Source: a virus (Duplodnaviria; Heunggongvirae; Uroviricota; Caudoviricetes). From it: a stretch of 22,887 nt of DNA. The stretch lies in the IMG/VR virus record IMGVR_UViG_2541047738_000004, one strand, 5' to 3'. Of this stretch, positions 22,418-22,887 are shown one piece after another; within the stretch, counting starts at the first letter, position 1, and each line of letters starts with the position of its first letter. The notes under the pieces are model-generated. The model was not told the origin of the DNA. It worked only from the letters and a program-made list of their open reading frames with translations, and did no database searches. Made by a program: the position numbers and the translations under genes.

Positions 22418-22878
22418 AAACGTCCACCATTCCCACCCTTCTGGGGCCGGACGGCATGACATCGCTGCGTGAATATGCCGGTTATCACGGCGGTGGCAGC
22501 GGATTTGGTGGGCAGTTGCGGGCGTGGAACCCACCGGGTGAAAGTGTGGATGCAGCCCTGCTGCCCAACTTTACCCGTGGCAATGCCCGCGCAGACGATC
22601 TGGTACGCAATAACGGCTATGCCGCCAACGCCATCCAGCTGCATCAGGATCATATCGTCGGGTCTTTTTTCCGGCTCAGTCATCGCCCAAGCTGGCGCTA
22701 TCTGGGCATCGGGGAGGAAGAAGCCCGTGCCTTTTCCCGCGAGGTTGAAGCGGCATGGAAAGAGTTTGCCGAGGATGACTGCTGCTGCATTGGGAAGGCT
22801 CTCCGACGTTCCTTGGCGACAAACGTATTGAAGGCTCGGTCTGGCCAAAGTCCATCCGTGGCTCCACGCCCAAAGTGA
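22414..22878 (+). CDS. B: Portal protein B, N-terminal ~126 codons intact then disrupted by a junction at 22792/22793 (likely truncated or pseudogene)
   Basis: Matches lambda gpB through …AEDDCCCI; lambda continues DVERKRTF… as recalled, whereas here the frame runs into a copy of terminase-A DNA and stops at 22876..22878. Confidence 0.7.
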
Positions 22879-22887
22879 GAGGCACCT
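22793..22887 (+). repeat. Copy 2 of the 95-bp direct repeat (terminase-A-derived, fused to the truncated portal gene, reaching the window end)
   Basis: Aligned by eye to 20855..20949; 4 mismatches (3 in cctgggtgacaagcg vs ccttggcgacaaacg, 1 in ccaaaag vs cccaaag). Confidence 0.9.

Follow-up and report, generated by a model that had tools for sequence, protein, structure and literature searches.

The scaffold examined here carries the left part of a lambda-like prophage of Escherichia coli and stops within the portal gene, shortly after the portal sequence has given way to a segment resembling the terminase gene A. The question is whether this join is part of the chromosome, and the prophage consequently defective, or whether it arose when the DNA was prepared and assembled. 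The evidence favours the latter, and we put the probability that the junction at 22792/22793 is a library-preparation or assembly chimera, and not a structure of the HVH 85 chromosome, at roughly 0.8. The window analysed is the entire scaffold KE699596.1 (22,887 bp) from the E. coli HVH 85 (4-0792144) draft genome (GCA_000457205.1), and its features are given in Table 1.

Table 1. Features of the window and the reference prophage (window coordinates unless an accession is given)
Feature	Coordinates	Strand	Basis or remark
Left scaffold end; phage-borne icd 3' end, attL copy of the attL/attR homology	1..217	+	ST3 attL vs attR alignment
Terminase large-subunit gene, lambda A type, 641 aa, intact, resident allele	20289..22214	+	ORF list; Pfam GpA_ATPase, GpA_nuclease; 0 mismatches to ST3
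Resident gene A segment homologous to the tail, 91/95 identical	20855..20949	+	
gpW head-tail joining gene, intact	22211..22417	+	Gene calls (L001 9798-10004 = window +12413)
Portal gene, authentic 5' portion (codons 1-126 and one further base)	22414..22792	+	100% identity to ST3 and lambda portals
Probably chimeric 154-aa ORF, deposited as 'portal protein B' EQP85677.1	22414..22878	+	Probable database artefact
346 bp directly before the junction, identical in both prophage types	22447..22792	+	L002 vs L003 comparison
Foreign 95-bp tail, second natural terminase-A allele, runs to the scaffold end	22793..22887	+	95/95 to L003
ST3, intact reference for the prophage	NZ_CP121087.1 991318-1022109		

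The resident prophage and its relatives

An ordinary lambda-like prophage sits in icd, and the window covers its left arm. The genes of this arm run in the order int/xis, recombination genes, immunity region, O/P, nin region, Q, cargo, lysis genes, bor/iss, cos, Nu1, A, W and the start of B. Coverage of the window reaches at least 80% in 139 complete E. coli genomes. Comparison of positions 1–22792 with the icd prophage of E. coli ST3, in which icd and the integrase are annotated, reveals 0 mismatches. The portal gene of ST3 is of normal length (533 aa) and is followed by protease, decoration, capsid and tail genes.

The region between Q and cos (14437–18826) holds a number of cargo genes. These encode a lipocalin (14437–14961, minus strand), a YbgA/DUF1722 protein with a 2-thiouracil desulfurase domain (15154–16113) and an AraC-type regulator (about 16432–17163), and the gene for the bor/iss serum-survival lipoprotein follows the lysis genes (18533–18826, minus strand). 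In the right arm of the ST3 prophage, the sitABCD iron/manganese transporter operon is located between the tail-fibre genes and attR (excerpt L004, 13328–16777), and is apparently also phage cargo. A short DUF1364 remnant in the nin region (13232–13321; excerpt L002, 17232–17321) is annotated as a pseudogene in ST3. Linear phage records with 100% identity to the window, Lambda_ev066 and 1H12 amongst others, stop at about 19579–19583, which marks the cos site upstream of Nu1 (19769–20314).

The prophage brings with it a replacement 3' end of icd (window 1–217; excerpts L002 2914–4217 and L004 11246–11413). When attL and attR of ST3 are aligned, the icd homology between them starts exactly at base 1 of the window and ends near 217. 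The left end of the scaffold therefore appears to be a branch point of the assembly graph, placed where the att homology begins. The two att copies of ST3 first differ at window position 77, and an exact repeat of at least 96 bp is not seen in that strain; an excised (attP) form of the prophage, or a different attR in HVH 85, might account for the break on this side.

The portal reading frame and the junction

The open reading frame that begins at 22414 agrees with lambda-type gpB as far as residue 126 (...EDDCCCI). From 22793 on it passes into the A segment, in a frame other than that of A, and gains 28 aa (GKALRRSL...PRPK) before the stop at 22878. The coordinates given in the preliminary description, namely a portal match through ...EDDCCCI, a switch at 22792/22793 and an end of the frame at 22878, are thus confirmed, and alignment to phage lambda gives 100% identity up to 22792 and no match beyond it. 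Of the full-length portal domain (~533 aa, PF05136), residues 1–126 alone are present.

In intact icd prophages such as that of ST3, the intact portal sequence across the breakpoint reads ...TGCATTGACGTTGAGCG, and the true continuation, GACGTTGAGCG..., encodes DVERKRTF.... The tail after 22792 shares 28 of 95 positions with this continuation, which is chance level. At the breakpoint (marked by a slash) the portal gene has GCATTG/ACGTTG and gene A has TTGAACA/GGAAGG, with zero bases in common; the earlier observation that the switch lacks obvious microhomology is borne out by this comparison.

The first 126 codons of the lambda gpB portal (PF05136, Phage_portal_2) and the 22.8 kb upstream are identical in such prophages and in HVH 85. 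Unlike the 533-aa portal of ST3, however, the deposited HVH 85 ORF is 154 aa in length and has an out-of-frame, terminase-derived C terminus. EQP85677.1 falls in a cluster of 578 members, mostly truncated N termini of portal proteins, a sign that drafts very often break within the first ~150 codons of the portal gene. P0010, a second 154-aa member of this cluster, was considered as a parallel case and proved to be a plain truncation without a chimeric tail.

Between the junction and the end of KE699596.1 there are exactly 95 bp, and the tail is thus made up of the final 95 bases. Since the scaffold ends at 22887, the 95-bp size of the A-gene copy is a point of cut-off and not a measured length. 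For the same part of the genome it had been proposed that the head-gene block after W is not intact. This cannot be concluded from a scaffold that simply ends.

The tail as a second natural allele of terminase A

The tail (22793–22887) aligns without gaps to 20855–20949 in the resident A gene with 4 mismatches in 95, in agreement with the ~96% identity first reported. It had been taken for a diverged copy of the resident gene. It is instead an exact copy (95/95) of a different natural allele, carried, for example, by the A gene of the Qin-locus prophage of E. coli CFSAN061762 (excerpt L003). The same allele occurs in 1,248 records of complete E. coli genomes at a cut-off of at least 99% identity, which over 95 bp amounts to an exact match, as one mismatch in 95 already gives 98.9%. 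The tail differs from the resident A at positions 20876, 20879, 20885 and 20933, where the variant allele has T, C, A and C, respectively. Each of these sites is a third codon position of A, and each change is synonymous. The pattern is that of ordinary allelic variation, and not of error or decay.

As the tail carries the variant A allele, the sample must have contained a second lambda-type A gene. Such genes are found at 4,683 places in 3,318 genomes amongst the complete E. coli sequences, and several per genome are common. We infer that a second lambda-type prophage with the variant allele is resident in HVH 85. The Qin-locus prophage of ST3, found by synteny, has a different terminase/portal module and is without the tail allele.

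Comparison of the CFSAN061762-type prophage with the window reveals 38 differing sites between 20654 and 22446. In the reference coordinates of the window, the two types are then exactly identical over 22447–23102, a run of 656 bp that has the junction inside it. The scaffold consequently shows resident alleles up to 22446, then 346 bp that are ambiguous between the two prophages, then the junction and, beyond it, the variant allele. The variant A allele and the identical 22447–23102 stretch occur together in the prophage type of CFSAN061762, and a prophage of this type may be present in HVH 85 as well.

Partial terminases that start just after the 20876/20879/20885 cluster of polymorphisms (window 20876–20886) are far commoner in public assemblies than those at neighbouring codons (109 index blocks, against 12–14 contigs). 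Such an excess would fit frequent assembly breaks at allele bubbles, where two lambda-type A alleles share one sample.

Search for the junction in other sequences

The junction was found in none of 5,426 complete E. coli genomes. Every match to a junction-spanning query stopped at 22792 in these genomes, and no match covered 80% of the query. Amongst 50,697 phage records none spanned it, and a 30-mer across the junction had no exact match in the metagenome, viral and GTDB species-representative collections. The exact chimeric 154-aa protein was found in one contig, KE699596.1 itself, in an index of 153 billion gene positions.

The possibility that the A-side breakpoint at 20855 is a natural boundary or hot spot was considered and rejected. 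An exact look-up of partial terminases starting at the breakpoint residue returned 12 contigs in other assemblies, but control starts shifted by –1, +1 and +10 codons gave equal or larger counts (14, 13 and at least 24 contigs, respectively). The contigs start at 20854–20856, have scattered ends and carry either allele, and none has the junction; they appear to represent a background of random contig breaks. Exact look-up was also carried out for the neighbouring fragments that would be predicted, namely a terminase from 20856 and a portal from 22699, from 22795 or from the first internal Met. Some of these exist, none of them from HVH 85.

Geometry of the join

Position 22793 corresponds to 20855 in gene A. 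In homologous coordinates, the 3' side of the join therefore lies 1,938 bp upstream of the 5' side, on the same strand. For a partner picked at random, the chance of lying on the same strand and no more than 10 kb upstream, in either prophage, is about 0.2%. The position of the partner points to an event within a single molecule of prophage size.

A blunt, same-strand join that leads 1,938 bp backwards is what would be expected from a circularised jumping-library fragment of ~1.9 kb. Chimeras of this kind are known from mate-pair reads that span the circularisation junction. The join in HVH 85 resembles these mate-pair or jumping-library chimeras in that it lies on the same strand, leads from a downstream to an upstream end, spans ~2 kb and is blunt, with no microhomology. 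Such chimeras normally disturb scaffolding only, whereas in HVH 85 one would appear inside the sequence graph. With 1,938 bp, the distance falls at the lower limit of the 2–10 kb quoted for jumping libraries; it is compatible with other '2–3 kb' jump libraries from the Broad Institute, which were measured at 2,218 ± 363 bp (PMC4580222).

Assembly graph and proposed mechanism

HVH 85 is an HVH isolate of 2013, and we take it to have been assembled with ALLPATHS-LG, as presumably were the Broad bacterial drafts of that year. Gnerre, the first author of ALLPATHS-LG, belonged to the staff of the Broad Institute, together with Nusbaum and Birren. All three are amongst the depositors of the HVH samples, and the HVH samples listed have four runs each (PMC7067039). 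A literature search found no mention of the accession numbers and no paper stating the assembler used for the HVH genomes.

The unipath graph of ALLPATHS-LG is constructed at K=96, and its gaps are closed with jumping reads, 'ignoring their pairing' (Ribeiro 2012, PMC3483556). The Broad recipe for bacteria combined a 180-bp fragment library with a jumping library of ~3 kb (range 2–10 kb), both sequenced as 101-base reads (PMC3483556). At K=96, neighbouring edges of the graph overlap by K–1 = 95 bases, so an edge entering a sequence that has another upstream context ends exactly 95 bases into it. The tail of KE699596.1 is 95 bp in length, that is, K–1 for K=96. It follows that in the graph the variant A segment was still preceded by its usual upstream sequence. 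Since a genuine duplication would leave a K–1 tail as well, the figure of 95 indicates a graph boundary and not, in itself, a false junction. The scaffold resembles the K–1 edge overlaps of ALLPATHS-LG in having its 95-base tail at one end and a repeat boundary at the other. A normal overlap, however, repeats sequence that truly adjoins, whereas this one leads to a non-adjacent gene segment, so that a false or minority edge is needed as well.

A possible sequence of events is as follows. HVH 85 would carry the icd lambda-like prophage together with a second lambda-type prophage that has the variant A allele and an identical early portal. The two prophages would merge in the K=96 graph within their 656-bp exact shared run. 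A chimeric molecule derived from the second prophage would then supply an edge that exits the shared portal sequence at 22792 and re-enters A 1,938 bp upstream. The likeliest source of this edge would be a jumping read over the blunt circularisation junction of a fragment of ~1.9 kb, of the kind that ALLPATHS-LG may take up unpaired when patching the graph. The edge would stop K–1 = 95 bases into A, where it meets the genuine upstream context of that gene, and the scaffold would end there. Since a single 101-base chimeric read cannot give all 95 of the junction-spanning 96-mers, overlap-based patching or several reads would be required.

Of the two readings offered in the preliminary description, the chimeric assembly join is thus the one that the data support: the junction lies 95 bp from a scaffold end and is unique to one assembly, and relatives that are 100% identical before it have an intact portal gene.

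Alternative explanations

The most serious rival, although an unlikely one, is a real head-to-tail duplication or small circle of 1,938 bp in the second prophage, comprising the 3' two-thirds of A, W and 126 portal codons. It would have arisen by homology-free end-joining, perhaps during spontaneous induction, either as a tandem duplication of ~1.9 kb or as a small circular or concatemeric by-product. It could be fixed or present in part of the culture, but would have to be abundant enough to enter the graph, and the scaffold would reach it via the 346-bp stretch common to both prophages. The topology is that of a prophage tandem duplication junction, in which a downstream end continues, without change of strand, into sequence 1,938 bp further upstream; the K–1 tail would follow here too, since A would then have two upstream contexts. 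Super-reads from the fragment library could, moreover, give all of the junction k-mers more easily than one chimeric jump read. Identical copies would be expected of a recent duplication; the tail matches the resident A at 91 of 95 positions, and identity would hold only if the event had taken place in the second prophage. It had been argued earlier that a fresh tandem duplication is excluded because the copies differ. This reasoning holds for a strain with one A gene, and fails here in that the variant allele shows a second one. Against a duplication, there is no microhomology or flanking repeat at the endpoints. The absence of endpoint microhomology is atypical of bacterial duplications and typical of blunt ligation. 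No second copy is visible, and the junction was found in no other genome, phage or metagenome searched, so that a duplication would at best be private to the HVH 85 culture. In addition, the assembler did not run on through the junction, and the prior for a duplication is far lower than that for a chimeric end of a scaffold in a short-read draft.

Two further explanations place the join in the chromosome. Illegitimate recombination could have joined the portal gene of the icd prophage to the A gene of another prophage, leaving a defective prophage, as the preliminary description proposed. The different alleles on the two sides (resident to at least 22446, variant after 22792) are in keeping with this, as is the number of E. 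coli genomes with more than one lambda-type A gene. If two separate prophages were involved, however, the chance of a same-strand partner less than 2 kb away in homologous coordinates would be about 0.2%, and a deletion between two distant prophages would remove much of the intervening chromosome. The K–1 tail also implies that the variant A segment is still accompanied by its own normal upstream context, which argues against recombination. No relative has a portal-to-A structure, and there is no sign of the inherited, continuous arrangement of a defective prophage, as no other genome searched has the join and the sequence stops K–1 bases after it. With the partner exactly 1,938 bp upstream on the same strand, the proposal is unsupported and we regard it as highly improbable. 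The remaining explanation, an old duplication within this one prophage, the second copy of which would since have accumulated mutations, would account for the 4 differences in 95 positions. These differences, however, reproduce a widespread natural allele exactly and leave the amino acids of A unchanged, even though the ORF does not use the A frame within the tail, and prophages identical over 22,792 bp are without the duplication. The exact match to a natural allele excludes this explanation, which can be considered effectively refuted.

Implications

If the join is a chimera, as seems probable, it is biologically of no consequence: the element is an ordinary lambda-like icd prophage, and the head-gene block of its relatives is intact. 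The 154-aa EQP85677.1, with its probably chimeric C terminus, is nevertheless present in public protein databases, and to call a pseudogene or a 'defective prophage' from scaffold KE699596.1 would be wrong. Foreign tails of K–1 length at the ends of scaffolds in ALLPATHS-era drafts should be trimmed before rearrangements are inferred from them.
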